64,000 bases of DNA, from the IMG/VR virus record IMGVR_UViG_3300020182_000015. One strand, given 5' to 3'. The translations under genes were made by a program, and so were the position numbers. This document shows, one piece after another, positions 8,518-39,552 of the stretch. Positions within the stretch are counted from its first letter, which is position 1; every line of letters begins with the position of its first letter. The notes under the pieces were generated by a model, which had not been told where the DNA came from, made no database searches, and saw only the letters and a list, made by a program, of their open reading frames with translations. The stretch comes from an uncultured virus (IMG/VR IMGVR_UViG_3300020182_000015). Its lineage: Duplodnaviria; Heunggongvirae; Uroviricota; Caudoviricetes.

Positions 8518-9441
8518 ATGTCATTCGCATCACTAAAACGTAATACCTCAAATATCACTAAACTAGTCGCGGCAGCCGAAGCTGTTGGTGGTGGCCAATC
8601 AAATAACAAATATACAGACGATCGTATTTGGAAACCAACAGTAGATAAAGCAAATAATGGATATGCTATTATCCGCTTTCTTCCGGCGGCTGAGGGTACA
8701 GACCTTCCGTGGGTTCGCTATTGGGATCATGGATTCAAGGGCCCGACAGGTAAATGGTATATTGAAAAATCTCTTACTTCAATTGGCCAAAACGATCCGG
8801 TAGGTGAACTCAATTCGCGTTTGTGGAATACTGGTTTAGAAGCGGATAAAGAAACTGCTCGTAAACAAAAGCGGCGGCTTCATTATGTATCAAACATCTA
8901 TGTTGTAAGTGATCCAGGCAATCCTGCCAATGAAGGCAAAGTATTTCTATATCAATATGGTAAAAAAATCTTTGATAAATTGATGGATGCTATGCAACCG
9001 GAATTTGATGATGAAGATCCAATTAATCCATTTGATTTTTGGACTGGCGCAAATTTCAAGCTTAAAATCCGTGATGTTGAAGGTTATCGTAATTACGATA
9101 AATCCGAATTTTCACGGCAAGAGCCATTGTCCCAAGATGATGATGAGCTAGAGGCAATTTATAATAAGATTCACGGCTTGGCTGAATTTACTGATCCGTC
9201 ATCATATAAAACTTATAATGAATTGAGTGCTAAACTTACATCAGTATTAGGAGAAGCTAATGCAACAATGGGTACACCGAGCTTAGCACAAGAAGCAAGT
9301 CTTGGTGAAGAAGCAACAGCGCCAACTTATAAAGCTGCTGCAGAAGAAACCATTAATGCAGCTGATATTTCACTAGATACAGTAACGTCAACAGAGGATG
9401 ATGACACTATGTCATATTTTTCAAAGTTGATGAGTGATTAA
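8518..9441 (+). CDS. 32: Single-stranded DNA-binding protein gp32
   Basis: DDRIWKP..DKANNGYAIIRFLP, HGFKGPTGKWYIE, YGKKIFDK, GANFKLK, NYDKSEF and acidic tail DDDTMSYFSKL. Confidence 0.97.
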   Translation: MSFASLKRNTSNITKLVAAAEAVGGGQSNNKYTDDRIWKPTVDKANNGYAIIRFLPAAEGTDLPWVRYWDHGFKGPTGKWYIEKSLTSIGQNDPVGELNSRLWNTGLEADKETARKQKRRLHYVSNIYVVSDPGNPANEGKVFLYQYGKKIFDKLMDAMQPEFDDEDPINPFDFWTGANFKLKIRDVEGYRNYDKSEFSRQEPLSQDDDELEAIYNKIHGLAEFTDPSSYKTYNELSAKLTSVLGEANATMGTPSLAQEASLGEEATAPTYKAAAEETINAADISLDTVTSTEDDDTMSYFSKLMSD

Positions 9442-11699
9442 ATGGGCACTACTTTATCGGATCTATCTATTGAGCTAGACCCTGATGCAGTAAGTGTTGT
9501 ATGACTAACACTAGTTGAACTATTATCAATATTATTTGGAACAGCAGGCATTATTACAGTAGTATTTGCCTGCTGTTTTACTTCATCAAAAGTTCCCTGG
9601 GCTTCTTGTAACCTTTGTGATAAATTGGTTTGATCATTTGAAAGATTTGCCGATATTTTTTGCTGGGCTACATTTATAATTATTTCATTAGAAGATATCA
9701 CAGGTTTAGTTATAGTTACTTTTTTTACTAATTCTTTTGCGGCAATGCCGGCCTTTTCATAGTCAGCTCTTTTAGCAACATCTTTAGAAGCTTCGTGTAT
9801 TAACAATGTTTTCTTTTTAGCCTGGTCGGCATCAAATTCATTTAATTTGGTTTGAACCGAATCTTTTTTGGCCTTTTCTATTTTTTCATTTTTTTCAACA
9901 TTTGGGTCTGTGCTATTTAAATCCCTAGCTAAAATAGCCGCATCAATACCGACTGATGCAGCTGTTCCTGGTCCCGGCAAAATTGCCGCTGTGCCAGATG
10001 CAATTTCCATTGCGGCGCCTGTGAAATCTCCTTGCATAACTTCACTTACTGCAAAAGCTAAAGCAGGTATAAGGCCAAGGCCAAATGGCAATTTTTTAGC
10101 GGCGGACTTTGCAGCTGCTTTTGCCACTTGTTTTGCGGCTATTTTTGATGCGGCTTTTGATGCGGCTTTTTCAGCCGCTGCTAGAGATGCTTTTGCAGTT
10201 TTTCCGGCATTTATTTGAGCGGCAGTTGCTGCAGCTTTTTCAGTCGCTTCTTTAATTAATTGTTGTCTTATTGCTTTATTTAAAGCCGCTTTAGGCGTAG
10301 GTTTTACATTTAAATTAGCTGGCGGGTTTGATTTAGGCGCAGTAGGCGCAGTAGGCGCTGATTTAGGCGCAGTAGATGAATTAGCCGGTATAGCTGGTGG
10401 TGATAATTTCGGTGCAGTAGGCGCTGGTGGTGATAATTTCGGTGCAGTAGGCGCTGTAGGTGCTGATTTCGGTGCAGTAGGCGCTGTAGGTGCTGATTTC
10501 GGTGCAGTAGGCGCTGATTTAGGCGCAGTGGATGAATTAGGCGCAGTGGATGAATTAGGCGGTATAGCTGGTGGTGATAATTTCGGTGCAGTAGGCGCTG
10601 ATTTAGGCGCAGTAGGCGCTGTAGGCGCTGATTTAGGCGCAGTGGATGAATTAGGCGCTGTAGGTGCTGATTTCGGTGCAGTAGGCGCTGATTTAGGCGC
10701 AGTGGATGAATTAGGCGCAGTGGATGAATTAGGCGGTATAGCTGGTGGTGATAATTTTGGTGCAGTAGATGCTGATTTAGGTACATTTGGAATACTAGTG
10801 GGTCTTACTTTTGGGGGTGACCCAATCTTTGCTTTTGGTGCAGTAGGTTTTTTAAACATTTTTCTAATTTTATTAAGTGCACCTAAGCCAACCCCTAAGC
10901 CGGCCCCTTTTAATAGCCAACCACCTAGCTTCCTAAATAATCCCTCTCCGCTTTTGCCAGCATTTTCGTCTTTATCGTCTTCATTATTTTGATTATTACC
11001 AAGGGCAGAAGCAAATAAACCGCGATTGACTATTTTTTTAGCTTCGCGCTGATCTTCGAGATTGTCTAAATTCTTTAGTTTTTTGGCCTTAATATAATCG
11101 GCAATAGTTTTATTTAAAGTAACTAATTCATTTAATATATCTTTTTGAATGTCTATATTATTTTCTGTTAATAGAACAAGAGTTTTTACACTTTTTGATT
11201 GGAATGCATTGCCAACAGCAGTAAATGGCATTTTTAATGCACCTTTTATTGCTGTCTTAGCTTTATCAAGACCACCGCCTAGCATTTGACCTGGAATAGT
11301 TGCTATATTTTTAGCGCTATTAATAATGCCGCCCAATGCGCGACGAGGAGCTCCTAAAATATTAGCAGTTACTGCAGCACCTCTGGTTATTGGGTTATTT
11401 GCAAATTGTTCTTTAATACGATTACCAAAAGACATCTTGCCAGATATACCACTCTTTTTTATATCCGTAAGAAGTGCGTTCGAAAGAGTGGCAGCTTTAA
11501 TAAGTTCTTCTTGTTTATCTATGAATAAATCAAATTGTGATGTTAAAGAATAAAGAGATTGATTTGATGAAATACTATTATTAGTTTGTGAAGTATTTGC
11601 GGCTAGTATGGAAATGCTTTCGGCCAGGCTTGCAAGATCTATTTGCAAGTCTCCATTCTCAGCTGAGAGCCGGGCATTAATATTTGCTAACGTAGCCAT
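9438..11699 (-). CDS. Tape-measure-like tail protein (gp29 position) with Pro/Ala/Ser/Thr repeat insert
   Basis: Downstream of gp26/gp51; Ala-rich helical, with hydrophobic KKLPFGLGL...GDFTGAAMEIASG...PGPGTAASVGIDAAILARD segment. Confidence 0.6.
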   Translation of the reverse strand: MATLANINARLSAENGDLQIDLASLAESISILAANTSQTNNSISSNQSLYSLTSQFDLFIDKQEELIKAATLSNALLTDIKKSGISGKMSFGNRIKEQFANNPITRGAAVTANILGAPRRALGGIINSAKNIATIPGQMLGGGLDKAKTAIKGALKMPFTAVGNAFQSKSVKTLVLLTENNIDIQKDILNELVTLNKTIADYIKAKKLKNLDNLEDQREAKKIVNRGLFASALGNNQNNEDDKDENAGKSGEGLFRKLGGWLLKGAGLGVGLGALNKIRKMFKKPTAPKAKIGSPPKVRPTSIPNVPKSASTAPKLSPPAIPPNSSTAPNSSTAPKSAPTAPKSAPTAPNSSTAPKSAPTAPTAPKSAPTAPKLSPPAIPPNSSTAPNSSTAPKSAPTAPKSAPTAPTAPKSAPTAPTAPKLSPPAPTAPKLSPPAIPANSSTAPKSAPTAPTAPKSNPPANLNVKPTPKAALNKAIRQQLIKEATEKAAATAAQINAGKTAKASLAAAEKAASKAASKIAAKQVAKAAAKSAAKKLPFGLGLIPALAFAVSEVMQGDFTGAAMEIASGTAAILPGPGTAASVGIDAAILARDLNSTDPNVEKNEKIEKAKKDSVQTKLNEFDADQAKKKTLLIHEASKDVAKRADYEKAGIAAKELVKKVTITKPVISSNEIIINVAQQKISANLSNDQTNLSQRLQEAQGTFDEVKQQANTTVIMPAVPNNIDNSSTSVSHTTLTASGSSSIDRSDKVVPI
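10310..10790 (-). repeat. Coding tandem repeat array (APKSAPT / APNSST / APKLSPPAIPPNSST)
   Basis: 9-, 18- and 21-nt units; 10501-10583 recurs identically at 10675-10757. Confidence 0.92.
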
Positions 11700-11881
11700 T
11701 ACATTTTCCTCTTAATTTTCTCTGCTTGTTCTTCTAAGTGTTGTATTAATAAAGCCACATAAATTTCTCGTTCCCAGGGCATCATATTCTCCAACTCATG
11801 TAGAGAATAATTATGATGTTGCATTAACCCAAAGTTGGTCTTATAATGATTATATAATGAATCATTACTCGACCATATTAA
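11699..11881 (-). CDS. 51: Baseplate hub assembly protein gp51-like reading frame (not in ORF track; first ATG at 11824)
   Basis: Manual translation LIWSSNDSLYNHYKTNFGLMQHHNYSLHELENMMPWEREIYVALLIQHLEEQAEKIKRKM*; stop overlaps the next ATG. Confidence 0.85.
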   Translation of the reverse strand, partial: LIWSSNDSLYNHYKTNFGLMQHHNYSLHELENMMPWEREIYVALLIQHLEEQAEKIKRKM

Positions 11882-12588
11882 AAAAAATCGGTAAGATTCC
11901 GGATAAGTATTTCACTAGTATGTTTACAATTTTCACATGTATGGGTATGCCTTTTTTCTAAAACCGGCATTTTTTCAATATAAGATTTTATAAGATCGAA
12001 TTGTGTGCTAGTCATAGATCCTAAAAAGTTAATAATTTCTTCTCTAGTCTCATCTTTAAATAATATTTTTTCTTCTTCCGTTTCAAGTGAGACTAAACAG
12101 TCCGCCATTAATTCAATTGTCTGAATAGTTTCGGATTCGGTTGTCATAAGTAAAGAATTTTCAATTGTTTTAATATACGTTGGCCATTGCAATTCAACAC
12201 AAATATCTTTGGTAATATTAATTTTATTTGATATTTCTGGTATAGTTACATTTACATCGTCAATAGTCATGTTTACTTCATTTTGGTGTTCGCATTCGAC
12301 GCATGTTACAATAATATCTACCGATTCTCCAACAGATTTGGCTCTAATTTTTGTAAAAATATATTCAATATCAAATAATTTTAATTTATCTATATCAAGA
12401 TCTTCTTGTATGCATGCACGTAACGTATCAACAACAGCATTCAACGCCGCATTTTGATCTTGGGATTCAAACGCCAACATTAGAACTTTTTCTTCTTTTA
12501 CAAGATATGGTCTAAATTTAACTGTTTGGTTAGTTGACGGAATTGTTAATTCATATTTTGGGATATCATTCAGTTTAGGCAATGCCAT
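11878..12588 (-). CDS. 26: Baseplate hub assembly protein gp26-like
   Basis: MALPKL..PKYELTIPS...VKFRPYLVKEEKVL, FDIEYIFTKIRAKSVGE, two CxxC pairs, C-terminal LTDFF. Confidence 0.9.
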   Translation of the reverse strand: MALPKLNDIPKYELTIPSTNQTVKFRPYLVKEEKVLMLAFESQDQNAALNAVVDTLRACIQEDLDIDKLKLFDIEYIFTKIRAKSVGESVDIIVTCVECEHQNEVNMTIDDVNVTIPEISNKINITKDICVELQWPTYIKTIENSLLMTTESETIQTIELMADCLVSLETEEEKILFKDETREEIINFLGSMTSTQFDLIKSYIEKMPVLEKRHTHTCENCKHTSEILIRNLTDFF

Positions 12589-13118
12589 TATAAGGGGCTC
12601 CAGTTATAGTAAGACAATTGGACATTTAATTCTACTAGTCCGTTAGTCGTTTCATTATTAAATTCATTAGCATTCATTGTTGTAGGATATGCGCCTTCTA
12701 ATCGCACACTATAAGGGCTTATCATTCCATTAGATTCGGTTTTTTGTTGTGCGCGTAAAATAACATCTTTTTGATAATTTGTTTTATATGATATTTCGTA
12801 GGTCGTTTGGTTAACAATTAAATTCATCCAAAGATCAAAATATTTTCGTATTGCATAATCATTTGTAATATTAAACGATAAAGATATATCATCTTGCATA
12901 AATGTGTATGGAACTTTTTCTGCTTTAGGACCAATATATCGTTCAGCAGTAGCAATTTGTCTACCCGGAAGATTCATAGCCTTACACGTAATATTTTTTT
13001 CATTAAGTGTTAAATTGGAACCAGCTATTGCCGGAAGTTCAATTGAATAAAGATTGGGCATGGCTAAACCGCCCCTGCCACCAATAGTAGATAAAAAATC
13101 ATCTATTCTAAAAGTCAT
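12588..13118 (-). CDS. Tail tube initiator, gp54/gp19-like fold
   Basis: GGLAMPNLY, CKAMNLPGR, RKYFDLWMNLI, AYPT..., VQLSY; ATG 13118 overlaps the gp2 stop. Confidence 0.75.
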   Translation of the reverse strand: MTFRIDDFLSTIGGRGGLAMPNLYSIELPAIAGSNLTLNEKNITCKAMNLPGRQIATAERYIGPKAEKVPYTFMQDDISLSFNITNDYAIRKYFDLWMNLIVNQTTYEISYKTNYQKDVILRAQQKTESNGMISPYSVRLEGAYPTTMNANEFNNETTNGLVELNVQLSYYNWSPL

Positions 13119-13710: not shown

Positions 13711-13718
13711 TATTTATA
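13711..13718 (-). promoter_or_regulatory. T4-type late promoter
   Basis: TATAAATA on the minus strand, only 5 nt before the gp2 ATG. Confidence 0.7.
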
Positions 13719-15982: not shown

Positions 15983-17389
15983 ATGTCGGCAAAAAATCCA
16001 CATGATTATTATTTTAAAAAAATAGAAATTCAATCTGAAAGATTTGATACTGGTGTTGTGGCCTCAATAGAAGCTTGGGACATTACATATATGACGTTGC
16101 AATTGGATATTTTTGAACATATTGATAAGCCATATTTAACCGCTTCATTATTGTTTATGGATAATAGCAATCTTAGTAGCGAAATGAATTTACTTGGTAC
16201 TGAAAGAGTTACAGTTACAGTTAGTACAACAGAAAATGCAAACGCAAATGCAATTACAAAAGTGTTTAGAATCAGTGAAATTACTCTTTCAAAAAAATCG
16301 AATGATGAAACCGAGCTACATGCAATACATTTGGTTGAAGAGCATGCATATTTGTCGTCCATAAATAGTATTGACGGTGGTTATGAAGATGAACCATTTA
16401 AAATTATTGAAAAAATAATGAATAATGAGCTTAATCGAGAAATAAAAATTGGCAAAAATGCTGAGCCGTTTATTGCAGAAAAAATGAAAATTGTTGCGCC
16501 CGGAACACCGGCATTAAAAGTTTGTAATTGGATAAAAGATAGATGTAATACTGAAACGGGTTCTCCCTTTTATATGTGGTCGAGTCTTGCCGATGATATT
16601 ATACGATTTGTTGATTTGGAAAATTTATTAAATACCCCCGCGCAAAATGCAGGCCCTGGGAATGAATATTGGTATTCTCAGGCAATGATTACTGACGCTA
16701 CTCAAAATAAAGATATTTTTGAGCAGGGGAGGGCGATTACAAGTTATGAAACCTTGAATAGTGAAAATCATTTGTATTTTGCAATTAAGGGGTTAGTTAA
16801 TTCTCAATGGGATTTTTATGATCCACTTACCGGAAAAAATACTCCTATAGATTTTAAAATGAAAGAAAAATACCAAGATTTACTTTCTCGAAATATTTTA
16901 CCCGAGGCAGAGTCAACTTTTTTATTAGATAATGAAACAAAAATTAATAATAAAATTATTAGTGATCATGCAGCTACGGATTTTTTTCAACTTGCGCCGT
17001 CTCAAATGCATTTTGAAAAAAATTCACCGTTTCGGGTAAATTATTATGAAGAGCCTAACCCAACAATGCATAAATTAAAAGTAATAGGAAAAGCTTTAAG
17101 AGAATGGATTTTAAAACCTCAAATGTCAGTAACCATTGCTGGTTTACATTTTTTACGAAAAGGCGCGAATTTAACAATTGGGAATAAAATTGTTATTAAA
17201 TTTTTGCGAAATAATGATGATAGAGAATATATTAATAAAAATTATCAGCTTTTTGATACTAAGCGATCCGGCGAATATTTAATATACGCTACACGGCATA
17301 CTTTTTCAGATGAAGAGTACAGAGTCAATCATACATTAGGCAAATTAAGCACTTACGGAAACATTCTAAGTCAAACGGTGGAATTTTGA
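15983..17389 (+). CDS. Baseplate hub protein, gp27-like
   Basis: Position between gp53 and gp5; IFEHIDKPYLTA, PFYMW, SGEYLIYATRHTF. Confidence 0.65.
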   Translation: MSAKNPHDYYFKKIEIQSERFDTGVVASIEAWDITYMTLQLDIFEHIDKPYLTASLLFMDNSNLSSEMNLLGTERVTVTVSTTENANANAITKVFRISEITLSKKSNDETELHAIHLVEEHAYLSSINSIDGGYEDEPFKIIEKIMNNELNREIKIGKNAEPFIAEKMKIVAPGTPALKVCNWIKDRCNTETGSPFYMWSSLADDIIRFVDLENLLNTPAQNAGPGNEYWYSQAMITDATQNKDIFEQGRAITSYETLNSENHLYFAIKGLVNSQWDFYDPLTGKNTPIDFKMKEKYQDLLSRNILPEAESTFLLDNETKINNKIISDHAATDFFQLAPSQMHFEKNSPFRVNYYEEPNPTMHKLKVIGKALREWILKPQMSVTIAGLHFLRKGANLTIGNKIVIKFLRNNDDREYINKNYQLFDTKRSGEYLIYATRHTFSDEEYRVNHTLGKLSTYGNILSQTVEF

Positions 17390-18291
17390 AAACTATATCT
17401 GATCAGCTTGGTGGAGCAAGTGCAAATTGGTTTTTTGGGAAAATTGTCGATAACGATGATCCTCTTGAAATTGGCCGATTTAAAGTTAGAATTCATGGAT
17501 TGCATACTAATAATTCGGCTAAAGTTCCGAATGAGTATCTGCCATGGGCACAGTGTGTAATGCCAGCAAACTCAAGCGGTATTTCTGGTTTAGGCGATAT
17601 GCCAAGAATGCTGCCCGGCGCTCAAGTATTTGGTTTCTTTTTAGATGGAGAAGCATCGCAAATTCCTCTTATATTGGGGCCGGTGCTAACAATAGAGTCT
17701 CCTTCCGAAATACAAGCAGCTGCTGAAGCAGCATTGCCGGCTCAAACCCAAACAAGTTCTCCGATTAGCTCACCAGCTAGTTCACCATCTCTACTTGGCA
17801 ACCAAACAACACAATCAGATACCGAAATAGATGAGAATTTAGTTGGTAATAATAATTCAGAAAAAATATTTAATTACTTTGTTAACGCCGGTTATTCACC
17901 AGCACAGTCTGCCGGCATAGTTGGTAACTTTTATGCAGAATCGGCTTTAAATCCTAAAGCATATAATCCTAATGATGTAGGGATGCCGGCCGAAGGATTG
18001 GCTCAATGGCGAGCAGGAAGACTTACGGACTTAAAAGAATTTGCTCGACAAAAAGGTAGTGATCATAGAGCCCTTAATACGCAATTAGCATTTACTTTGC
18101 ATGAATTGCAGGGAAAAGAAAGAAGCGCAAATAATCGTCTGTTAAATGCTAAAACGGCAAAAGAAGCGGCATATACTGTCTCGAGATATTATGAGAGACC
18201 TGCAAATAAAATAGTTAATGGAGTGTATACCTCGCCATCATTGCAAAAAAGAATTAATTTTGCTGAAGAGACATTGAGGAGTTACGGATAA
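17386..18291 (+). CDS. 5: gp5 N-terminal OB-fold domain fused to a phage tail lysozyme domain
   Basis: WFFGKIVDNDDPLEIGRFKVRIHGLH...LPWA...VFGFFLDG..SQIPLILG; C-terminal AGIVGNFYAES, GLAQW..GR, QLAFTLHEL, YERP; TTG start. Confidence 0.85.
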   Translation: MKTISDQLGGASANWFFGKIVDNDDPLEIGRFKVRIHGLHTNNSAKVPNEYLPWAQCVMPANSSGISGLGDMPRMLPGAQVFGFFLDGEASQIPLILGPVLTIESPSEIQAAAEAALPAQTQTSSPISSPASSPSLLGNQTTQSDTEIDENLVGNNNSEKIFNYFVNAGYSPAQSAGIVGNFYAESALNPKAYNPNDVGMPAEGLAQWRAGRLTDLKEFARQKGSDHRALNTQLAFTLHELQGKERSANNRLLNAKTAKEAAYTVSRYYERPANKIVNGVYTSPSLQKRINFAEETLRSYG

Positions 18292-19826
18292 TGAGTACTA
18301 TTTCACAATTACTTGGAAATTTGGCAGCAAGATTTCCAGGCGATACCCCTATTATTAATGTAGCAAAGGGTGTTTATGGATTAAAAAATTTAGAAGATGA
18401 AGTTTTTAATGAAATAGGATTAGTGGTAAACGGTATCTTAAACAATACTCAATCCTTACCAGAAATTAAATCAAAAAATATAAGTATACCGGATGCAAAA
18501 GTTGTAGAATTTACACCAGCTGTACCTGGCTATGAAAATATATTAAGAAGTGCAACAAGTGAAAAACAAGATATTACTAAAATGACCTCATCTTCCCTGG
18601 TAGGAGATGGCGAAAATAATTTCATTCTTACTTTAGGTAAACCCTTTGCAATGGCTAATGCACTAAGTCAAGTAACAAATACAAAGGTACCGTTTAATAT
18701 AATTTCTCCGTTTATTCCAATTGAAACAAATGCACAAGCAAGCGAAACATTTATTACTTCTAATTATAATGCTGCTATGCCCGGTGCTACTAATGCGTTA
18801 ACTCAGTCTCGCTTAGCCATACTTAATTCTATTTTAGGATCAGTTAATAACAATTATAAAAATTTAACAGAAAGTGCTGGATTCTTAGCAACTTATTCAT
18901 CATCAAAAAATAATGAAATTGAAAATGCTATATCTTTTTTAAACTTAAATGATGAAGTAAAATCTAAAATTATTCCGCTAGTTATAAATGGCGATAAGAA
19001 TACGGCTATTAATAAAATTATAGAAGCATTACCATTAAATGAACGCAGTGACGCAAAAATTAAAGAAATTGAAGAAGCTGTTGCTGGAATAGATACTAGT
19101 ATTACTGCTAATACTACAAATGGCAATTCAATTCCGAATCCAGCAATAAGTACAGCACCGATTACCACCTCGCAAAAATTTGCTGGATATCAAACCAGTA
19201 CTAAGTCTGCCAATATGCCATATAGATTTCCTATTGTTGCTGGTAAAGAAGAACTTATAGCAGATTTTAATTTTGCAAAAGAAAATCGTGAAATTACAGC
19301 ATTGGTAAATCATTGGACAGGTCATTTTAAAAATGATTCAGTGATTACTGCCCAACATATACATGATATGCATATGGACCCGCCATATAATTATTCTGGT
19401 ATTGGATATCATTATATTATTTTATCTGATGGTAGAATTCAAAGGGGTCGACCAGTAAATATAGTAGGTAATCATGTGAAAGATATGGATCAGCGAACAA
19501 TAGGCGTTGCTGGCGTCGGGGGCATAGGACTTACTCGAGAATATTGGCAAAGCGAATTAGGCGAAAAATTTAGTACGCAGGGCTATCCATACGGCGGACG
19601 GTGGTATAGTGATGCTCAAGCAAAAACTTTTAAATTAATTGCTGAATGCTTTTATAGTGTATGGGATGCCGGAGAAATTTATGGACATATGGATATGAAA
19701 CCAAGCACTCAACAAGATCCCGATTGGCCAGAAGAATGGTTGCCTTCAATGTTTAAAAGAAAAAATAAATTCGATCCAACAAAAGGTGCTCCTACAACAG
19801 CTCAAATTTTGGGAGATATATCATGA
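18291..19826 (+). CDS. Virion-associated protein with C-terminal N-acetylmuramoyl-L-alanine amidase (amidase_2) domain
   Basis: VNHWT, IGYHYII..DGRIQRGRP....GNHV, IYGH...QQDP zinc-amidase motifs. Confidence 0.82.
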   Translation: MSTISQLLGNLAARFPGDTPIINVAKGVYGLKNLEDEVFNEIGLVVNGILNNTQSLPEIKSKNISIPDAKVVEFTPAVPGYENILRSATSEKQDITKMTSSSLVGDGENNFILTLGKPFAMANALSQVTNTKVPFNIISPFIPIETNAQASETFITSNYNAAMPGATNALTQSRLAILNSILGSVNNNYKNLTESAGFLATYSSSKNNEIENAISFLNLNDEVKSKIIPLVINGDKNTAINKIIEALPLNERSDAKIKEIEEAVAGIDTSITANTTNGNSIPNPAISTAPITTSQKFAGYQTSTKSANMPYRFPIVAGKEELIADFNFAKENREITALVNHWTGHFKNDSVITAQHIHDMHMDPPYNYSGIGYHYIILSDGRIQRGRPVNIVGNHVKDMDQRTIGVAGVGGIGLTREYWQSELGEKFSTQGYPYGGRWYSDAQAKTFKLIAECFYSVWDAGEIYGHMDMKPSTQQDPDWPEEWLPSMFKRKNKFDPTKGAPTTAQILGDIS

Positions 19827-22360
19827 CAACAAATTTTGAAAAAGAAGAAGCAATTATAAGCGAAAGCCAAATAATGTCAAACTCTAATGGGTTTGTAGAA
19901 GGTTCAGGTACATACCCTAAACCAGAATATTGGCATCAAAGTTCTGTTAATTTGGCTGCAAGAAATGCTAAATTCCATAAATTAGATATATCAAATGGAA
20001 TTCCATTTGTAGATTTAGATCTAAATGCGCCGCTGTCTGCCCAATATCCTTTAAATGATGTTCATGAAACACCAGCAGGACATGTTTTTGAATTTAATGA
20101 CACATTAGCCAATGAAAGAATATTGCTAAAACATACAATTGGTGCCGGTATTGATATTAAACCAGATGGCACAATTTTAATAAATTCTAAAGGCAATAGA
20201 GTTGAAATAGTAGATGATAATTATTATATGGCTGTTGAAGGTGATGGTCATTTAACTTATTATGGAAACCTTAGCTTAAATGTTTCCGGCGATTTAGATA
20301 TGGATGTTGGCGGCGACTTTTATTTAAGAGTTGGTGGAAGCTGGATGATTAATGTTTTAGGCGATTATCGTAAAAAAATTGTTGGACATTGGCAAGAGAT
20401 TGTTCAAAAAAGTAAAAACATTACTAATATTGGAAATTATGTTTCAACAACACTTGGTACAGTTATTGATTCGGTAAAGGGTAAATATACTTTAAGATCG
20501 GAGGATAAAATAGAAGTACATGCTGGTGATAATTTGTATATTACTGCCGCAAATGAATTTATTCAAACTGCACCAAATATGAATATTGCGGCGCAGGACA
20601 TGTCTGTTATTGGCAGCACCGGAACTATTGGTGGCCAAGGCATTTACATGTATAATTTTAATTCCTATACAGAAAAAACAGTTCATGCCGAAACAGTTTC
20701 TGCTAAAGCAATGTTTGCGGATACTTTCTTTGGAGACTTGTCTGGTGATGCTTTAAGAGCCGTGAGTGCAAATGTATCGGCCGGTTTAGGCGGCGGCGGT
20801 GCATCGGTTAGAATTAATAATGTACAACGAAACAATGCACAATCAGCAAAACCGACAGCTACTAATATGGAGCAATATGTTGAAAATTCATCGCTTGGAT
20901 ATAAAAAAATCAGCATTGACCCCACAGAAGAATTAAAAAATTCAATTGAAAAAACTGCACCTACTGGTGGAGTAACAGATAGAATTTTAACAACTTCTGA
21001 AGTAAGAGCTAAATTAAAGGATCCATTAAATAAAGCTAATAATGAATTTTTAAAAGAACAATTTGAATTTGGTGTTTTGTCGCCACAATTTGCTAGATTG
21101 ACTAGCCCAAGTGGAAGTACGAGTCAAACTAGCGTTTCAATACCAAGAATTGAATCAGAACCTATTAATGGAATGTCTGACCCATATAGTCGAGTTCAAC
21201 CGCGGGAAAAAGCAGTGGCAAGAACCGTAAACATTGCGCCTAGCCCAGAATTCAATCCTACAAATTTTAAAGAAATAACCCAGAAAACCGAATTAGATAC
21301 AAATATTCCTATTTCTAAATTTATGGGGTCATTAGGAGATAGAAAATCAATTGAGAAAATTGATGATATGGGAAAACGAATAAGAATTGCGCAGAATCTT
21401 GTGCCCCATACTAAAATATTTAATACATTTAAAACATTAAAAAAATTAAATGATATTAATTTTGTTGTTGCGGAAGGGGTTTATATTCCAGTTCAATCCG
21501 AAAAATTAACACCTAATGGATTTATTGATTTATCAACAGAAGGTCGGGCCATTGCTTATGAAGTATATGATACCGCCGGTAAAATAAATTATGAAAAAAC
21601 TTTTGAAATGGCTGAAGCTATAAAAGATTTTTGCTATTTTGATTCCCTTGAATTAAGATATGATGATTACGATCCTAGCGGTATAATGAATATGCAGATT
21701 GCGGTGATCACTCCAGAAATTAATTCATCATATACTAATACCTATAAAATGAATGTTGCTACTTATTACAATGACATATTACAGAGCTCGAGCGATTTAA
21801 TACTATTAACATCAGATGAATTTGATCAAACTAATGAGTTTAGCACTAACCCAAATGTTGGCGTAGTAGATATGTCATATGACCCAGCTGATCCAAATGT
21901 GCCGGTAAATAATTCAAATACACAAGCAGATAATTCTTATAATGGACCACTCGGCAAAATTACAACAAAGAATGGGTTATCAACATCTATTGCTAAAGTA
22001 TTTGTTCCAAACTTCCAAGGATTAATTAATGATTTAGAAGCAGCTGGTTATGAGTTTAAAGTATTGCATGGTTATAGCAATAGAAATATCGCCAATTCAA
22101 GTAAAAAAAGCTGGCATGCGCACGGAGCAGCAATTGATATTAACCCAGCCCAAAATTATGTTCAGTATGGTGTTTCATTTGGCAATGGGATGGTTACAGA
22201 TATGCCTAATAATATTAGAGAACTTGCTGCAAAACATGGTTTAGGTTGGGGCGGTGATTGGAATAGTAAAAAAGATCCTATGCATTTTAGTGCTGCAAAA
22301 AATGAAGGCGGCAATTTTAACATAGCTAGAAATGGAAATATTCCAATATCAGTTGGATAA
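19823..22360 (+). CDS. gp5 C-terminal spike (beta-helix) protein with C-terminal M15 zinc peptidase
   Basis: YPLNDVHETPAGHVFEFNDT...ERI...H..G..IDIKPDG, V.GD repeats; C-terminal R....SWHAHGAAIDINP...GLGWGGDW...KDPMHF. Confidence 0.85.
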   Translation: MTTNFEKEEAIISESQIMSNSNGFVEGSGTYPKPEYWHQSSVNLAARNAKFHKLDISNGIPFVDLDLNAPLSAQYPLNDVHETPAGHVFEFNDTLANERILLKHTIGAGIDIKPDGTILINSKGNRVEIVDDNYYMAVEGDGHLTYYGNLSLNVSGDLDMDVGGDFYLRVGGSWMINVLGDYRKKIVGHWQEIVQKSKNITNIGNYVSTTLGTVIDSVKGKYTLRSEDKIEVHAGDNLYITAANEFIQTAPNMNIAAQDMSVIGSTGTIGGQGIYMYNFNSYTEKTVHAETVSAKAMFADTFFGDLSGDALRAVSANVSAGLGGGGASVRINNVQRNNAQSAKPTATNMEQYVENSSLGYKKISIDPTEELKNSIEKTAPTGGVTDRILTTSEVRAKLKDPLNKANNEFLKEQFEFGVLSPQFARLTSPSGSTSQTSVSIPRIESEPINGMSDPYSRVQPREKAVARTVNIAPSPEFNPTNFKEITQKTELDTNIPISKFMGSLGDRKSIEKIDDMGKRIRIAQNLVPHTKIFNTFKTLKKLNDINFVVAEGVYIPVQSEKLTPNGFIDLSTEGRAIAYEVYDTAGKINYEKTFEMAEAIKDFCYFDSLELRYDDYDPSGIMNMQIAVITPEINSSYTNTYKMNVATYYNDILQSSSDLILLTSDEFDQTNEFSTNPNVGVVDMSYDPADPNVPVNNSNTQADNSYNGPLGKITTKNGLSTSIAKVFVPNFQGLINDLEAAGYEFKVLHGYSNRNIANSSKKSWHAHGAAIDINPAQNYVQYGVSFGNGMVTDMPNNIRELAAKHGLGWGGDWNSKKDPMHFSAAKNEGGNFNIARNGNIPISVG

Positions 22361-33010: not shown

Positions 33011-34000
33011 GTGGCTATACATAGACCATTAACTTATGATAATACTGGTGGCGTGCTGCGCCAGATGACTGATGCAGAGTTAACAGCTTTACGTCTAAAA
33101 GCTATCTATACATATGGTTTAAATCCATCAGTTGTTCTTTCTCGTGTAGGTACAGGTGGTAATTTAGGTTCAATATACGATACAAGATCAATAGTAAATG
33201 GGTATGCTGCAGATTCTGATGGTGCACCACCGGTTACAATAAAAACCATAGAATTTTCTAATATTAATCAAACAGTACAAAGTGAATTAGCAGTTAATAA
33301 CGCGTCACTTAAAGAATATCCAGTCTATTTAAATAATAGTGGTGATATTGCTGCAATGACAGATATTGATTTTTATGATACAATTATTTTACCAGCAATT
33401 GATATTTTAACAAGTGGAAATACAACTTCTCAACAGCCCGGCACATATTTTATTTCAGCTACTAATAATGTTGCTGGTGCAACTTTAGTTGACCCTCTAC
33501 CTATTTACATAGATACTCGAGCTGACCTTAATTATTTCCGAAATGACGATTATGATTACGATTATGATTACGATTATGAATACGATTATGAATATTGCGG
33601 GCCATATGAAAACGATAGACCAATTCAAATTCAACAATTTTATTTGCACCGAATAGATGCAAATGCTGGAATTTTAGCACCAATTTCTTATCCGCTTTAT
33701 ATTACTGATAATAATAATTTAAAAATTTATGGAGCTAACGAATTAAATACACTATTAGAAAAAAGTATTAGATATACTGCTTCTGCAAATTCAGCCGGAT
33801 TAATTAGATATTCATATACAGATGGCAATACAAGAGGTAGTGCTATGTCAAATACAGTGTATTCGGGTTCTGGGTTTAAAGATTGGGCAATTGCTGATCT
33901 CTGTATTCCCGGAGATTACGATTATGATATTGTTCAGCAAGTTCCGGCTGGACCTGTCACAACAGCGAACATATATAATTTAAGGATCAAAAAAGGATAG
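33011..34000 (+). CDS. Putative structural protein with an (Asp/Glu-Tyr)n tract
   Basis: 329 aa, GTG start with GGAG RBS; DDYDYDYDYDYEYDYEY at 33545-33595. Confidence 0.7.
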   Translation: MAIHRPLTYDNTGGVLRQMTDAELTALRLKAIYTYGLNPSVVLSRVGTGGNLGSIYDTRSIVNGYAADSDGAPPVTIKTIEFSNINQTVQSELAVNNASLKEYPVYLNNSGDIAAMTDIDFYDTIILPAIDILTSGNTTSQQPGTYFISATNNVAGATLVDPLPIYIDTRADLNYFRNDDYDYDYDYDYEYDYEYCGPYENDRPIQIQQFYLHRIDANAGILAPISYPLYITDNNNLKIYGANELNTLLEKSIRYTASANSAGLIRYSYTDGNTRGSAMSNTVYSGSGFKDWAIADLCIPGDYDYDIVQQVPAGPVTTANIYNLRIKKG

Positions 34001-34008
34001 AATGAAAT

Positions 34009-34554
34009 ATGACGACATTTGTTAATGGTTTTAAAACCGCGAAATTTATTAATCCTCCAAAAAATACTTTAATAGAAATTATATATGAATCAAACAATAA
34101 AGATTCATCATATCTTATTGATGTGGATCATGAGCATCCAGATTTTAAAGCTTTAATGGAATTAGTATCTCTTGAAGATATTGAAAAGGCCACATATAAT
34201 AAGCCAACTGTGCATATTTCAGAATCTATTCCTATTGCAAAAATTAGTAAAGAATCAATTAAAAATATTGAAATTATTAATAATACAGCTGAAATTATTG
34301 AGATAGTTCCAGATGAGGCACCGGTTAAACCTGCTTATATTCCAAGACAAAAAAAGAACAGGCAAGTTGAAGTACAAGCAGTAAATGATGCCATACAAAT
34401 GCTAATGGATAATCGATATGATGAAGGTATTATTTTTCCATTAAAAGTAAAATTATTTAAAAATGAAAAAATAATTAATTCTGGATTAAAAAGAGATATT
34501 GAAGAAAGTAAAGATTTGATGCATCTTGTATCAATTATGCAATACTTGGATTAA
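34009..34554 (+). CDS. Hypothetical protein
   Basis: 181 aa ORF with AAGGA RBS, co-oriented in the operon. Confidence 0.7.
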   Translation: MTTFVNGFKTAKFINPPKNTLIEIIYESNNKDSSYLIDVDHEHPDFKALMELVSLEDIEKATYNKPTVHISESIPIAKISKESIKNIEIINNTAEIIEIVPDEAPVKPAYIPRQKKNRQVEVQAVNDAIQMLMDNRYDEGIIFPLKVKLFKNEKIINSGLKRDIEESKDLMHLVSIMQYLD

Positions 34555-34557
34555 ATT

Positions 34558-35322
34558 ATGAGTAAAAATAAAATTGTTTACTTGCAATGGGGTGATAGAT
34601 ATACTCAAGAGCATGTAGATCGATTATATGATCAAATCAATAAAAATTGTTCAGTAGATTTTGACTTTATGACGGTACAAGGCTGTCATGAAGGCGCTGC
34701 CTTTGATCAAATGCAATCTTTACAAAAAAAATATTATAGAGGTGATTTGGACGTAGACTCATCTATAACCGAAAATTCATCCGATACATATGTTCGTGAA
34801 GATGCCGGTGGTCTTGCACACTTTCGTAAATTTATTTTATTCATGCGAGACGACGATGATAGATATTTTGATAAAGATGACACTATATTATATGTTGATT
34901 TAGATACACTTATTACAAACGATCTATCATATTTTTTCGATTTAGATAATTCTAAACCTTGGATTGCACGCAGCTGGCAGTTTAATAAAGATAGTAAATG
35001 GAAAAGATTATATAATTTAAGAAGTTGTCCATATTTCAATAGTTCTGTTATGGTATGGAAACCCGGGCAATGTAGAAAAATATTTAATCAGCTTACAAAT
35101 CCAGTCAAAATAGAAGCATCATTTTTTCAATACGGAGTAAATGATAATTGGTTATTTCATAGATTTGGTCCAATGGCATATAGTAAAGATGATAGAAATT
35201 TTTTTAATCATTTTGATAAAGACATTGTAGTGTCAGACCCAAGTTATATGACAAATAATACTAAAATCCATACATTAGCAGGCCTTTCTATGAATGAAAA
35301 GAATAAAATATGTTTGAATTAA
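34558..35322 (+). CDS. GT-A fold glycosyltransferase (xWG..Y type)
   Basis: LQWGDRY, ILYVDLDTLI, FNSSVMVW, NDNWL. Confidence 0.82.
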   Translation: MSKNKIVYLQWGDRYTQEHVDRLYDQINKNCSVDFDFMTVQGCHEGAAFDQMQSLQKKYYRGDLDVDSSITENSSDTYVREDAGGLAHFRKFILFMRDDDDRYFDKDDTILYVDLDTLITNDLSYFFDLDNSKPWIARSWQFNKDSKWKRLYNLRSCPYFNSSVMVWKPGQCRKIFNQLTNPVKIEASFFQYGVNDNWLFHRFGPMAYSKDDRNFFNHFDKDIVVSDPSYMTNNTKIHTLAGLSMNEKNKICLN

Positions 35323-35924
35323 ATGATAGCTTAATATCATGTTTAGCATATATTGATTCTAACATGCCTTATAGAAAAAAAGATTTTTATGATTCAATTA
35401 AGCCCCAAGCATTACAAGCAAAGTTTTGGTTAGCTGAAGAATATAATAAAATTTATAAAGAACAGCGCACCGCAAATATTATTGGTGCAGGCTTTGTAAT
35501 GTTTAATGATTATTTTTTAAAGATAATGAATATAGATAATATTGTATATTATGATTTAGATAAAGAAGCATTATCGTTGAATTGGCATGCATTAAAAAAA
35601 ATACGCGAAGAAAAATTAATTTCACAAAAATGTTTAGATGTATTTTTAGATTATGAATATGTACGCAATGATTTATATAATGGAGTTGTTATAAATTATT
35701 CCTGTGAATCTATGTTTTATATGAAAAATTATATAGATATTACAAATTATCCAGCTAATACCGTATACTGTTTTATGGGATCTTCTTCCTTTAAAAGAGG
35801 AAATATTAATGTATCGAATAGCCTGGAAGATTTCATAGAAAAAAGCGGGTTAATTAATATTAATTATTCTGGGGAAAAATCTTTTGGAGATGAAACAAAA
35901 TATTTGGTAATTGGTACTACATAA
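35310..35924 (+). CDS. Class I SAM-dependent methyltransferase-like protein
   Basis: KFWL, IIGAGF, YDLD, VINYSCE, C-terminal YLVIG; paralog of 38935-39552. Confidence 0.65.
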   Translation: MFELNDSLISCLAYIDSNMPYRKKDFYDSIKPQALQAKFWLAEEYNKIYKEQRTANIIGAGFVMFNDYFLKIMNIDNIVYYDLDKEALSLNWHALKKIREEKLISQKCLDVFLDYEYVRNDLYNGVVINYSCESMFYMKNYIDITNYPANTVYCFMGSSSFKRGNINVSNSLEDFIEKSGLININYSGEKSFGDETKYLVIGTT

Positions 35925-35955
35925 TGTATCTCCCCTTTCATAAAAGCTACTCTTT

Positions 35956-35984
35956 ATTATACACTCGTTTTGACAATTTGTCAA
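35956..35984 (-). promoter_or_regulatory. Perfect-consensus sigma70 promoter on the minus strand
   Basis: TTGACA (35984-35979)-17 bp-TATAAT (35961-35956), followed by GGGGAG and ATG-TAG. Confidence 0.8.
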
Positions 35985-36017
35985 CCCCCTAAATATAAAA
36001 AAATTAACATTTTAGCA

Positions 36018-36046
36018 TTTACTATTGTACTTTCTTATGATATAAT
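36018..36046 (+). promoter_or_regulatory. Sigma70-type promoter for the QueC-like gene and downstream transferases
   Basis: TTTACT-17 bp-TATAAT with extended TG. Confidence 0.72.
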
Positions 36047-36070
36047 AAGTTATATAATGAAAGAAGAATT

Positions 36071-36751
36071 ATGAAATTTTTAACTGGCCCTACATGGGAT
36101 GAAAGAGTAATTGATTTAAATCCTGCTTCTAAGATAGGAATTTTAGTTTCATCTGGTGTGGATAGTACTACCCTTTTAAAACTTATTTGGGATAACTTTA
36201 AAGATATTAATATAAGACTTTTTAATGTTCAAACAAGTGAAAACCCAGCAAAACCCACAATACAAAAAATTTTAGATCAACTTGAAATTCCACTAGAACT
36301 TGAAATTGTTGGCAAGTCTAGATGGAATTGGCCTATGCATGCCCATTATCCTAGATTATGTAAAGCATTTCAAGAAATACGAGATACTACTGATTGCGAA
36401 GAACTTTATTGCGGAAATATTCTTCCACCTCATCCACAATGGTTTCCTAGATGGGATGTGAAACAAAAAGGAATAGCTAAAAGACCTTGGGTGACCAACG
36501 ATAAATTTTTAAAAAATCCATTTGAACATTTAGAAAAATATCATGTACTGGATATAGGAGTAAGAAACAATTTTGAACAAATTTATCAACAAACAATTTC
36601 GTGTAATATTCATGCAGAAATTCCGTGTAATGATTGTATGGGGTGCTGTGAATTAAAATGGGGGTGGGAACAACTTTCATCAAAGGTTGGTACTAATCTT
36701 GATGAAATGACAAAAGACGCAATGATAAAATATGGGAATATAGGATGGTAA
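36071..36751 (+). CDS. QueC-like PP-loop ATP pyrophosphatase
   Basis: ILVSSGVDST PP-loop; NPFEHLEK; TISC......PCNDCMGC.E..W zinc-binding C-terminus. Confidence 0.78.
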   Translation: MKFLTGPTWDERVIDLNPASKIGILVSSGVDSTTLLKLIWDNFKDINIRLFNVQTSENPAKPTIQKILDQLEIPLELEIVGKSRWNWPMHAHYPRLCKAFQEIRDTTDCEELYCGNILPPHPQWFPRWDVKQKGIAKRPWVTNDKFLKNPFEHLEKYHVLDIGVRNNFEQIYQQTISCNIHAEIPCNDCMGCCELKWGWEQLSSKVGTNLDEMTKDAMIKYGNIGW

Positions 36752-37308
36752 ATATAACTAATATAGACAAAGCATATGATGATGCTGCAGTTTGGTACGA
36801 AGAAAAATATGTTAATGGCGGTTGGGAAAATAATATTTACATGAAAGACGAAAAAGACGCATGGCAGTATTGGTCAATGTTAAATTTGTCTGGAAAAATA
36901 GTATCTTTGGGATGTGGATCTGGTCAAGACATTCCTATCCTTGATATGCCAAATCCAAATAATTTTGAGGGGTATGATATATCCCAAGGTATGCTAGATA
37001 ATGCAAAAATAAAATTTCCAGATTATAGCTTTACTCATCATGATTGTAATAAGATGATCGATACTAATGCTGATATTTTGGTAAGTATATTTGGAACAGC
37101 TAATTATTTAGGTATTGATACACTTTTGCAACATTACAACCATATGAATTGTAAGCATGCTTTTTTTGTTTTTTATGATGAAAATTATGTTGATGGTATT
37201 ATTGACACTTATTATAGGTATACTAAAGAACAATTAGAAAAAGCATTTGAGCAGTTTAATCCAGATGTTCGTAAATTAAATAATAATTACTATATTGTAG
37301 CCTGGTAA
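36745..37308 (+). CDS. Class I SAM-dependent methyltransferase
   Basis: VSLGCGSG motif I, GYDISQGMLDNAKIKFP. Confidence 0.88.
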   Translation: MVNITNIDKAYDDAAVWYEEKYVNGGWENNIYMKDEKDAWQYWSMLNLSGKIVSLGCGSGQDIPILDMPNPNNFEGYDISQGMLDNAKIKFPDYSFTHHDCNKMIDTNADILVSIFGTANYLGIDTLLQHYNHMNCKHAFFVFYDENYVDGIIDTYYRYTKEQLEKAFEQFNPDVRKLNNNYYIVAW

Positions 37309-38015
37309 TGTTGCGAATTATTGTTTCTAAATGGGGGGATATGTATGGAGAGGAATACATAGACAAACTTAAAGAAAGTATTGCAAAATACACTACTGTT
37401 GATTGGGACTTAACAGTTATTAGAGATTGCCATACCGATTGGGAGCATTATAGCAAGAAATGGTTTCGAGGAGAGGGTAATCCATCTGTTGTACAAGGTG
37501 AAGGTTTTCAAAATGGTTATCACCATTATAATTTAGGAGGTATTCCTCTTTATAGAAAAATGTATCCCTTTGGTTTAGATGATTTCGCAGATGATAATGA
37601 TACTATCATTATGATGGATATAGATATGTTAATCACCGCGGATTTAAAATATTTTACAACTTTAAATTTTGATAAACCTTGGGTACAATATGATTATAAT
37701 ATGGAAAAAACAGATAAAAATAGATTAATAAAAGATTTTATTAATCAGAATATTACTCCGATCAATACATCTGTTACTGTCTGGAAAAAAGGTCAATTAA
37801 AACCAGTATATGATTTAGTTAATCAGTATAAAGATGAAATATTTTTTACTTATCGCAGAGTTGATGCTTATGTATGGTATAGATTCGGAGTAAAAGAATT
37901 TTTTAATTTTTTGCCCCCTTTAGCTGTTGATTGGTATTCTAATAATAGTAATGCCATTATAAAAAATATGGCAGGTGAACCTATTAAATTAAAGAATAAA
38001 ATTATTTTAACATGA
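37308..38015 (+). CDS. GT-A fold glycosyltransferase (KWG..Y type)
   Basis: SKWGDMYGEEYIDKL, MMDIDMLI, INTSVTVW. Confidence 0.82.
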   Translation: MLRIIVSKWGDMYGEEYIDKLKESIAKYTTVDWDLTVIRDCHTDWEHYSKKWFRGEGNPSVVQGEGFQNGYHHYNLGGIPLYRKMYPFGLDDFADDNDTIIMMDIDMLITADLKYFTTLNFDKPWVQYDYNMEKTDKNRLIKDFINQNITPINTSVTVWKKGQLKPVYDLVNQYKDEIFFTYRRVDAYVWYRFGVKEFFNFLPPLAVDWYSNNSNAIIKNMAGEPIKLKNKIILT

Positions 38016-38206
38016 TTAAAGTATGGACGCTTGCAATTATAACATATAGTATGGTCTGGGCTGGTGGGGCAATGACTTTAATAAAAATATGTCATTATCA
38101 GAATCCCGATGCTAGTTGGGATTATGTTCAGTTATCATTAAACCGATGGCAAGTTTGTCCACCATTTATTGAAAAGAAATCTAAGTATGCAAAACCAAAA
38201 AAATAG
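38012..38206 (+). CDS. Small putative membrane/secreted protein
   Basis: Hydrophobic N-half, two Cys; ATGA overlap with upstream stop. Confidence 0.5.
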   Translation: MIKVWTLAIITYSMVWAGGAMTLIKICHYQNPDASWDYVQLSLNRWQVCPPFIEKKSKYAKPKK

Positions 38207-38942
38207 AATTATATGCACTAAATGGGGTAGTGGATATGGAGATAAAGATATTGTAAATCTGTATAATTCTGTACAAAAAAATTGTTCTGTTGACATTGAA
38301 TTTGAGTGCTTTGAAAATTTAGAATCCGATTGGGAAGATTATAAATGGAAACATTATAGAGCATCGAATGAACCAGACTATCGAAAAGATATGGTTCAAA
38401 ATAATTATCATAGAGATGATTTTGGCGGAATTCCTCACTATAGGAAAATTCTTCTTTTTGAATTAGATAAAAAATTTAATCCTAATGACAAAATTTTGTA
38501 TTTAGATTTAGATACACTTATCACTGGCGATTTGGCGTATTTTTTTGAAGATTTAAATATTGATAAGCCATATATAGTTTGGAATTATTGGTGGGACCAT
38601 CCTTATTTTGAAAGCGGCTCAGAATGGAAAAGACAATATTCTATTACCCGTTGCCCATTATTTAATAGTTCAACTATGCTATGGAAACCCGGCCAAAATA
38701 AACCAATATATAATCATATAGCGCAATACACTGACGAAGTATTTTTTACTTATCCATCAATGGATACTTTTATGTTTCATAACTTTGGTCCTTGTAACAG
38801 CAGCAAAAATAAAAACCACTTTCAATATTTTGATGAAGGTATTATAACGTCCGAAAGAATTAATTCTATTGAAGACGGAGAAGCCGGAATTATTCATATG
38901 TTGGAAGGATTATCTAATGAAGAAAAGTCTAAGTATGTATAA
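38187..38942 (+). CDS. GT-A fold glycosyltransferase (KWG..Y type)
   Basis: CTKWGSGY, ILYLDLDTLI, FNSSTMLW, MDTFM; start reassigned to ATG 38187. Confidence 0.82.
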   Translation: MQNQKNRIICTKWGSGYGDKDIVNLYNSVQKNCSVDIEFECFENLESDWEDYKWKHYRASNEPDYRKDMVQNNYHRDDFGGIPHYRKILLFELDKKFNPNDKILYLDLDTLITGDLAYFFEDLNIDKPYIVWNYWWDHPYFESGSEWKRQYSITRCPLFNSSTMLWKPGQNKPIYNHIAQYTDEVFFTYPSMDTFMFHNFGPCNSSKNKNHFQYFDEGIITSERINSIEDGEAGIIHMLEGLSNEEKSKYV

Positions 38943-39552
38943 TATTGAACCCACTGATGCTATAAGATACAGTAAATTATTTAACCGTATTAAATGGGAA
39001 TTCCCTTGGTTTTTTGATCAAGTAAAGGATCAAATAAGTGATACTGAATTTCAAATTCAAAAATGGTGGGCTAATCGAATAGATCTCATTGATAAAAAAG
39101 TTAATATTCTTTCCTCGGGCATTGGATTTTATTCAGTACCGTTTTGCTATGAAAAATGCGCTAAACATATTAATGCCTATGATATGGATCCTACCACCGA
39201 TATTCTTTCCAGAGATATTAATAGATTTTATTTTCCAATTTTTGAACATCACCAGAATAATATTATTTTTGATAGAGAATTATTAGATGTATCTGCGGAT
39301 ATTTGGATTAATACCAGTTGTGAACATAGTTATTATATGAAAGATATTATTCCGACTGGTAAGCTATGTGTTTTATCTGGTAATGATTGTTCAAAACGTG
39401 GTCATATCAATTTAATTAATTCAGTTGACCAATTAATTAACCAGACCGGATTATCTTCTATACTTTTTACTGATACAATGCAATTTAATTTTGAAGATGA
39501 TATGGGTAAGCAAGAGTATAATCAGTATTTTGCAATAGGAATTAAGGAATGA
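38935..39552 (+). CDS. Class I SAM-dependent methyltransferase-like protein
   Basis: QKWW, ILSSGIG, YDMD, INTSCEH, HIN, YFAIG; start reassigned to ATG 38935. Confidence 0.68.
   Translation: MYNIEPTDAIRYSKLFNRIKWEFPWFFDQVKDQISDTEFQIQKWWANRIDLIDKKVNILSSGIGFYSVPFCYEKCAKHINAYDMDPTTDILSRDINRFYFPIFEHHQNNIIFDRELLDVSADIWINTSCEHSYYMKDIIPTGKLCVLSGNDCSKRGHINLINSVDQLINQTGLSSILFTDTMQFNFEDDMGKQEYNQYFAIGIKE

Follow-up and report, generated by a model that had tools for sequence, protein, structure and literature searches.

A conserved T-run at the gp26-gp51 junction of an uncultured marine T4-like phage: a probable −1 frameshift in a tail assembly chaperone gene

The gp26-gp51 junction and its slip site

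We analyzed a 64,000-nucleotide stretch of DNA (hereafter the window) from the uncultured virus IMGVR_UViG_3300020182_000015 (Caudoviricetes), focusing on the junction between a gp26-like gene and the gp51-like coding piece that follows it. The virus record is linear, 126 kb long, about 60% complete and 34% GC, and the window is a part of this 126-kb contig. DNA near-identical to the window is present in marine and estuary metagenomes, and PHROG scans placed a T4-like tail/baseplate region in it.

The gp26-like gene (11878..12588, minus strand) encodes a protein of 236 aa, assigned below as the short form of a tail assembly chaperone (TAC) and named TAC-N. It ends with ACC GAT TTT TTT TAA, in which eight T occupy 11887-11880, and a slippery heptamer T TTT TTT (11881..11887, minus strand) lies inside this run, directly 5′ of the TAA stop. 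The −1 frame from this point encodes a 60-aa C-terminal piece, named TAC-C (11699..11881, minus strand), and runs open until a TAA ending at 11699. Upstream, the same frame is closed by TAG TGA (11912..11917, minus strand), of which the TGA at 11914-11912 lies 8 codons 5′ of the T run, so that the possible slip window is limited to about 10 codons. The first ATG, GTG or TTG in the −1 frame is the ATG at 11824, which is codon 20 of the 60-codon piece. A −1 slip of both tRNAs on T TTT TTT predicts a joined product of 236 + 60 = 296 aa. A programmed −1 frameshift had been proposed here in a sequence-only reading of the window, and the T run, the heptamer, the start-less −1 frame closed upstream and the joined product of about 296 aa were all recovered as it described them, the last as a prediction.

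Such a site is rare in this virus. The 126-kb contig has 98 frames that measure 150 codons or more from stop to stop, and the gp26-like gene alone among them carries a T6 that is in register and no more than 2 codons from the stop, which is more than expected by chance. The site was spanned without insertion or deletion in contigs from four public runs (X5, X10, X17 and X18, of which X5 is possibly the source sample); these are assembled contigs, in which rare variants drop out, and contigs from an RNA library do not prove transcription. Three raw DNA runs and one further RNA run gave no coverage of the slip site. An identical junction was found in three IMG/VR contigs (L001-L003), possibly from one virus population.

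Conservation of the site in related loci

We compared the junction across 99 loci, namely the best 80 of 586 IMG/VR relatives and 19 cultured phages picked from a spread of 60 among 594 records. Loci with less than 190 nt downstream were removed and the others were clustered below 80% identity, which gave 53 representatives (34 IMG/VR, 19 cultured). Among the 594 records from which this spread of 60 was drawn, the closest cultured gp26 was that of phage C48C1, with 40% identity and an identical gene order.

In 52 of the 53 representatives and in 98 of all 99 loci, the motif T TTT TTN precedes the stop by 0-2 codons; its last base is T in 21 of the 52, C in 18, G in 9 and A in 4. The downstream piece lay in the −1 frame at all 76 IMG/VR loci with a match, bearing out the expectation that gp51 would invariably occupy this frame, and the other 4 of the 80 contigs end just after the stop. 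All 52 motif-bearing representatives have 56-69 open codons in the −1 frame; frame 0 is open over 19 codons in none of them, and the +1 frame in 4. Frameshifted TACs of the lambda G/G-T type are characterized by two overlapping frames, the second of them −1, and by a conserved X XXY YYZ site close to the end of the first; both features are present here in the same 52 representatives and 98 loci.

The codons at the site are constrained beyond the amino acids they encode. The first T of the heptamer is carried by GAT in 40 representatives, AGT in 6, AAT in 3, TCT in 2 and GCT in 1 (Asp, Ser, Asn and Ala), so that it is kept across five codons and persists when the amino acid changes. All 52 use TTT for the slip-site Phe, whereas 3-25 TTC occur in seven other conserved Phe columns; hence TTC does not interrupt the run, as had been predicted. 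Similarly, the Asp before the slip-site Phe is GAT in 40 of 40, and four other conserved Asp columns contain 6-15 GAC. The X XXY YYZ model leaves the third base of the second Phe codon unconstrained, and 22 TTT and 18 TTC occur there. Calculated from each gene's own codon use, the log10 probability is −9.7 for one slip-site constraint and −9.5 for the other, on the assumption that the genes are independent, which they are not.

Conservation also extends into the −1 frame well 5′ of the first Met of the window, as had been anticipated. In codons 4-19, L9 is conserved in 50, F17 in 48, N16 in 47 and H6 in 44 of the 52, with variation falling mostly at third positions, and at codon 2 I, V and L all occur.

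Identity of the short and the predicted long protein

The short protein matched PF12322 (E=7e-51) with 173 bits, the curated cut-off being 24.5. On phrog_150, which has 282 positions, it covers 5-232 and the −1 piece covers 236-279, while T4 gp26 covers 14-235 and T4 gp51 covers 13-280. The −1 piece also matched phrog_634 (E=3e-25), and aligned with residues 206-244 of T4 gp51, at its C-terminus, with no match to T4 gp26. A profile of the 52 predicted slip products (291-307 aa) aligned with residues 15-246 of T4 gp51 in a single domain that crosses the junction (E=4e-17), and with T4 gp26 only as far as the junction. T4 gene 26 ends with GAG TTC TTT GAG and has no T run, and can thus be regarded as a natural negative control.

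The AlphaFold2 model of the short protein has a predicted local distance difference test (pLDDT) score of 91.6 and is similar to gp26-family models in BFVD. Residues 1-92, folded alone, gave a pLDDT of 84. In a wide VIA search with this N-domain, the solved structures 3FGX (Z 8.1), 2OB9 (Z 7.0) and 3KLU (Z 6.9) took ranks 1-3 of 48,161 PDB chains, with alignments of 83-84 residues at a root-mean-square deviation of 3.5-3.7 Å; next came 5IR0 (Z 5.3), and all others had Z of 4.1 or less. These three are the phage tail assembly chaperones named in PMC9603447. A sequence search of the PDB with the TAC-N profile gave no significant match. With Z scores in the middling range and a specific ranking, the models support a TAC fold of the HK97 gp13, YqbN and Rbstp2171 type for the N-domain. 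This fold match, together with T4 gp51 as a natural N+C fusion, lends support to the earlier proposal that gp26 and the joined gp26-51 are the equivalents of lambda G and G-T.

The model of the short protein also contains two units made of a hairpin plus helices, with a CxxC motif after each (C96/C99 and C218/C221, invariant in 34 sequences), an arrangement suggestive of internal duplication and of a zinc site.

Candidate stimulators of the slip

A 14-bp hairpin is predicted 5 nt 3′ of the heptamer (11836..11875, minus strand; −15.3 kcal/mol) and is a candidate frameshift stimulator. Its z-score is −5.2, and none of 200 shuffles was equally stable. The stem is shared with the two closest relatives (L004 and L007), with no compensatory change. 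Scanned in 45-nt windows over the 52 sites, predicted structure was strongest at +5 (mean z −1.45). Several cyanophages have strong but different stems at the same position, and many IMG/VR relatives have none; the stem of the window phage is unrelated to those of P-SSM5, S-SSM7, S-CAM9, S-H9-1 and S-ShM2. The predicted 3′ hairpin is thus likely an optional, lineage-specific helper of the slip. P2-type sites are reported without hairpins (PMC3091744).

Pairing like that of a Shine-Dalgarno (SD) sequence with a generic anti-SD exceeded that of synonymous recodings at 18 of 52 sites (z below −1.5; one z-value is degenerate). The GG involved stems from a conserved Gly that is present in T4 gp26 too, and the site of the window pairs weakly with the anti-SD (−3.5 kcal/mol). 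At 11893-11901 (minus strand), the window, L004 and L007 have Asn in place of this conserved Gly before the slip site. The codon before the Asn is a rare Arg codon, CGG or AGG (8% and 6% of the Arg codons in the contig), which retains a GGA two bases further upstream, as TAAGGA in L004 and L007. There is a hint here of an SD-like helper in the form of GGA or TAAGGA in these three.

The stop codons of the gp26-like genes differ from those of their neighbors. TAA, TAG and TGA occur 28, 21 and 4 times in the 53 representatives, versus 173, 32 and 73 times in neighboring genes; among the 34 IMG/VR representatives TGA is absent, versus 73 of 278 neighboring genes. Part of the TAG excess arises because the −1 frame needs Val, and the scarcity of TGA may reflect shared ancestry. 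More tentatively, and with considerable doubt, the marine T4-like phages and cyanomyophages could make up a very large, mis-annotated clade of frameshifted chaperones, in which the slip would be tuned by a TGA-avoiding stop 0-1 codons past the heptamer and by lineage-specific 3′ hairpins, features not yet described. If this were true, and outside the coverage of the 2022 paper discussed below, it would provide a testable model of stop-assisted, hairpin-assisted −1 slippage and a pointer to tape-measure genes.

Proposed mechanism and alternative explanations

Given the site and the start-less open −1 frame, both of them conserved, and given that the joined product matches T4 gp51, we consider it highly likely that a conserved T-run −1 slip yields a 236-aa short and a 296-aa long protein, and that the two act as a pair of tail assembly chaperones in the manner of lambda G and G-T. 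A minority of ribosomes would slip back one base on U UUU UUU, with UAA directly next. Two Phe-tRNAs would slip in tandem, from UUU to UUU in the P site and from UUU to UUU in the A site; in relatives whose A-site codon is UUC, UUG or UUA, the cost would be one wobble mismatch. Pausing at the adjacent stop may aid the slip, as may the hairpin 5 nt downstream in the lineage of the window. By what is known of lambda (PMC5009743), many short copies would coat the tape-measure protein, and a rare long form would tie the tape measure via its 60-aa tail to a tube protein, starting polymerization. The slip would be a low-level event; a long form of the lambda G/G-T type would amount to a few per cent, would bind both tape measure and tube protein, and would be missing from the virion.

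Several observations count against this reading. All frameshift evidence is comparative, the slip products being computed and not observed, and the representatives share ancestry, so that their counts are not independent events. The one representative lacking T6, Vibrio phage K364, has only five T. In the structural comparison, Foldseek with the full-length model found nothing in the PDB at E≤0.001 (the HK97 chaperone ranked 6, E=0.88); with residues 1-92 it ranked 2OB9 and 3FGX first at non-significant E of 0.12-0.83, and a VIA Z of 7-8 is graded middling by the tool itself. None of 39 TAC-C pieces matched a Pfam tail family at E up to 1, a search in which short divergent domains are easily missed. 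A family-wide 3′ structure was not found across the 52 sites: z fell below −2 at +5 nt in 15 of 52, versus 0-4 in seven upstream windows, so the hairpin is not a family-wide feature, and a second, smaller dip lies at +60 (13 of 52). A profile comparison of the 753-aa gene downstream with T4 gp29 gave a probability of 1%, with no detectable likeness. An ATG lies within the first −1-frame codons in 11 of 53 representatives, ten of them cultured phages, and the gp26 stop overlaps a −1-frame ATG (TAATG or TGATG) in K364 (L098), phiW-14 (L086), Yut3 (L097) and phiM7 (L085). Finally, according to an older review (PMC3004832), T4 genetics place gp26 and gp51 among the hub assembly chaperones.

This last point leads to an explanation that we regard as improbable, in which the slip is real and the pair chaperones assembly of the baseplate hub (gp5/gp27/gp28) instead of coating the tape measure and recruiting the tube. 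It would fit an upstream gene that is likely not the major tube gene, a 753-aa gene that is a tape-measure candidate by position only, and a short protein twice the size of solved TACs and bearing two CxxC motifs. However, the best matches of the N-domain are three solved TACs, and PMC3004832 lists the T4 tape measure gp29 itself as a hub protein, so that hub chaperone and tape-measure chaperone may be one job.

Slippage of RNA polymerase, adding one U on the 8-T run, would also join both parts in frame, and eight T are present in the window and in 20 of the 52 representatives. Only six T are present in 31 of the 52, whereas the 2016 review PMC5009743 reports polymerase slippage as efficient at runs of 9; moreover, it is the ribosomal register X XXY YY that is conserved and not the length of the run. 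We consider this origin of the long form very improbable.

We assign a similarly low probability to the reading of gp51 as a small gene of its own, with translational coupling or re-initiation starting it either at the ATG at 11824 or, close to the gp26 stop, at a non-canonical codon. As the earlier reading had supposed, public annotation of most cultured relatives does give gp51 as a separate small gene, with a varying start, or omits it; among the 19 cultured-phage records, a joined gp26-gp51 gene appears in none of the 18 annotated ones. The early ATG codons and the stop-start overlaps in phiW-14, Yut3, K364 and phiM7 point the same way, and separate gp51 translation has to be reckoned with in the 11 early-ATG relatives. 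Nevertheless, the window has no standard start before codon 20 although codons 4-19 are conserved and can be aligned to T4 gp51; codon 2 is variable, the starts chosen by annotators are inconsistent, and the invariant T run would be left unexplained. Between the upstream −1 stop and codon 10, 24 of the 53 representatives have no ATG, GTG or TTG, and 42 have no ATG. The T6 run is kept in three of the four phages with stop-start overlaps, lineages in which re-initiation may act besides or in place of the slip.

A homopolymer sequencing error hiding nine true T and one fused gene, which the in-frame fusions of gp26-like and C-terminal parts in the database proteins P0001, P0002 and P0004 (one contig each; either genuine fused alleles or homopolymer errors) might suggest, is refuted by the gap-free contigs of four runs and the same split in 98 of 99 related loci.

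The genes flanking the junction

PHROG labels, which we take as gene names, give the order gp33, gp32 and then, on the minus strand, gp4, gp2, a tail-tube-fold gene, gp26, the gp51-like piece and the 753-aa gene; gp48, gp53, gp27-like, gp5, gp25 and gp6 lie on the plus strand of the tail/baseplate region. The earlier reading had named this order as tube-like gene, gp26, gp51 and tape-measure-like gene. The order itself held; of its labels, the upstream one likely does not stand for the major tube gene, and the downstream one rests on position, with no detectable likeness to gp29.

The upstream gene (12588..13118, minus strand; phrog_45, E=8.5e-30) encodes 176 aa from an ATG overlapping the gp2 stop. 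There are three genes of phrog_45 in each of the four complete relatives; the one with the best score sits elsewhere, directly after the sheath gene, in three of them. The upstream gene is therefore likely not the major tube gene, and gene order in relatives makes it likely a gp54-type baseplate-tube paralog. The family phrog_45 includes both gp54 and gp19, and with a profile made from 33 of the upstream genes, T4 gp19 gave a better match, though a partial one, than gp54. The 60%-complete contig yielded neither a sheath gene nor PF06841, which is uninformative at that completeness.

Downstream, a 753-aa gene with a Pro/Ala/Thr repeat (9438..11699, minus strand) has a start that overlaps the TAC-C stop (TAATG), and is a tape-measure candidate by its position. 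It had no Pfam match, an ESM Atlas search with it returned only unnamed viral clusters, and a strongly hydrophobic 19-residue window was not found in it at the positions sampled. In related loci the downstream neighbors are mostly 367-825 aa with 13-20% identity, and phiW-14 and K364 have no long gene there. The Pro/Ala/Thr/Ser tandem repeat spans 10310-10850 (minus strand; residues about 286-453) with periods of 9-174 nt. In the near-identical contig L002 the gene encodes 704 instead of 753 aa with identical ends, which indicates either a variable number of repeats or their collapse during assembly. If the 753-aa gene is the tape measure, either the repeat lies outside the ruler or tail length is altered by it.

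The motif TATAAATA (13711..13718, minus strand), which we take to be the T4-type late promoter consensus, lies 5 nt before the gp2 start. Late-promoter motifs are not enriched in the window (13 found versus 18.9 expected), and position alone favors TATAAATA. The gp2 gene, the tube paralog, the TAC gene and the 753-aa gene likely form an operon headed by this motif.

Elsewhere in the window, the gp5 region (17386-22360, plus strand) is apparently spread over three genes, of 301 aa (gp5 N-terminal domain and a lysozyme-like part), 511 aa (amidase match) and 845 aa (gp5-like part and endolysin match). At 58100-64000 (plus strand), a single open frame of at least 1919 codons reaches the window end, with 78-120-nt tandem repeats resembling those of the fiber gene at 42127-47178. 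About ten genes of 180-330 aa at 33011-41092 (plus strand) lie inside the structural region with almost no PHROG matches (weak QueC-like, glycosyltransferase).

Comparison with known systems

A 2022 study of T4-like TACs reportedly concerns genes 26 and 51, with frameshifting in several T4-like groups. PMC12846349 credits this study (Vladimirov, Gautam and Davidson, Virology 2022;566:9-15, PMID 34826709) with −1 slippery sites made of poly-T in the TAC-N genes of T4-like phages, and PMC10885494 cites it for some T4-like phages having instead a short gene and a fused long gene. PMC13119998, PMC12671138, PMC11526630, PMC12859696 and bioRxiv 2021.05.28.446129 cite it with no further detail of the junction. 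The locus in the window fits the description in the citing papers. The marine lineage of the window, with 40% identity or less to cultured gp26, and its hairpin were probably not treated there, and our literature search found no open paper treating the marine gp26/gp51 junction directly.

The −1 frameshift signal in this T4-like TAC gene is real and strongly conserved and, judging from the comparative sequence evidence, very probably functional. For T4-like phages, the principle itself was apparently already in print in 2022, which would make the window a well-supported new example and not a new principle. What the window adds is confirmation, and an extension of the principle to a marine lineage that is uncultured. 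On this reading the annotation would be corrected, with the gp51 of cultured relatives belonging to the joined product.

In T4, gp26 (208 aa) and gp51 (249 aa), both of PF12322, are the short form and the N+C long form of the same family. T4 thus has two divergent genes, with no T run ending gene 26, whereas the window phage has one gene with a slip site. The 2016 review PMC5009743 still lists T4 as an exception ('except T4'). The same text describes lambda gpG/gpGT, P2 gpE/gpE+E′ and HK97 gp13 (2OB9), which likewise slip −1 near the end of the chaperone gene to give short and long forms. The P2 E/E+E′ site is TTTTTTG (PMC3091744), and exactly TTTTTTG occurs in 9 of the 53 relatives. The modeled N-domain of the window probably shares the HK97 gp13-type fold. 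There are also differences from these systems: the short form in the window is longer, at 236 aa compared with about 90-140 aa in lambda/P2/HK97-type short forms, and includes extra parts and two CxxC motifs; its upstream neighbor is likely not the major tube gene, unlike in the lambda/P2/HK97-type arrangement, where the chaperone gene sits between the genes for the major tail tube and the tape measure; and its C-piece has no Pfam match to lambda gpT or P2 gpE′. Taken together, the fold match and the T4 gene 26 negative control support the idea that T4-like phages share the short/long tail chaperone logic of lambda and P2.

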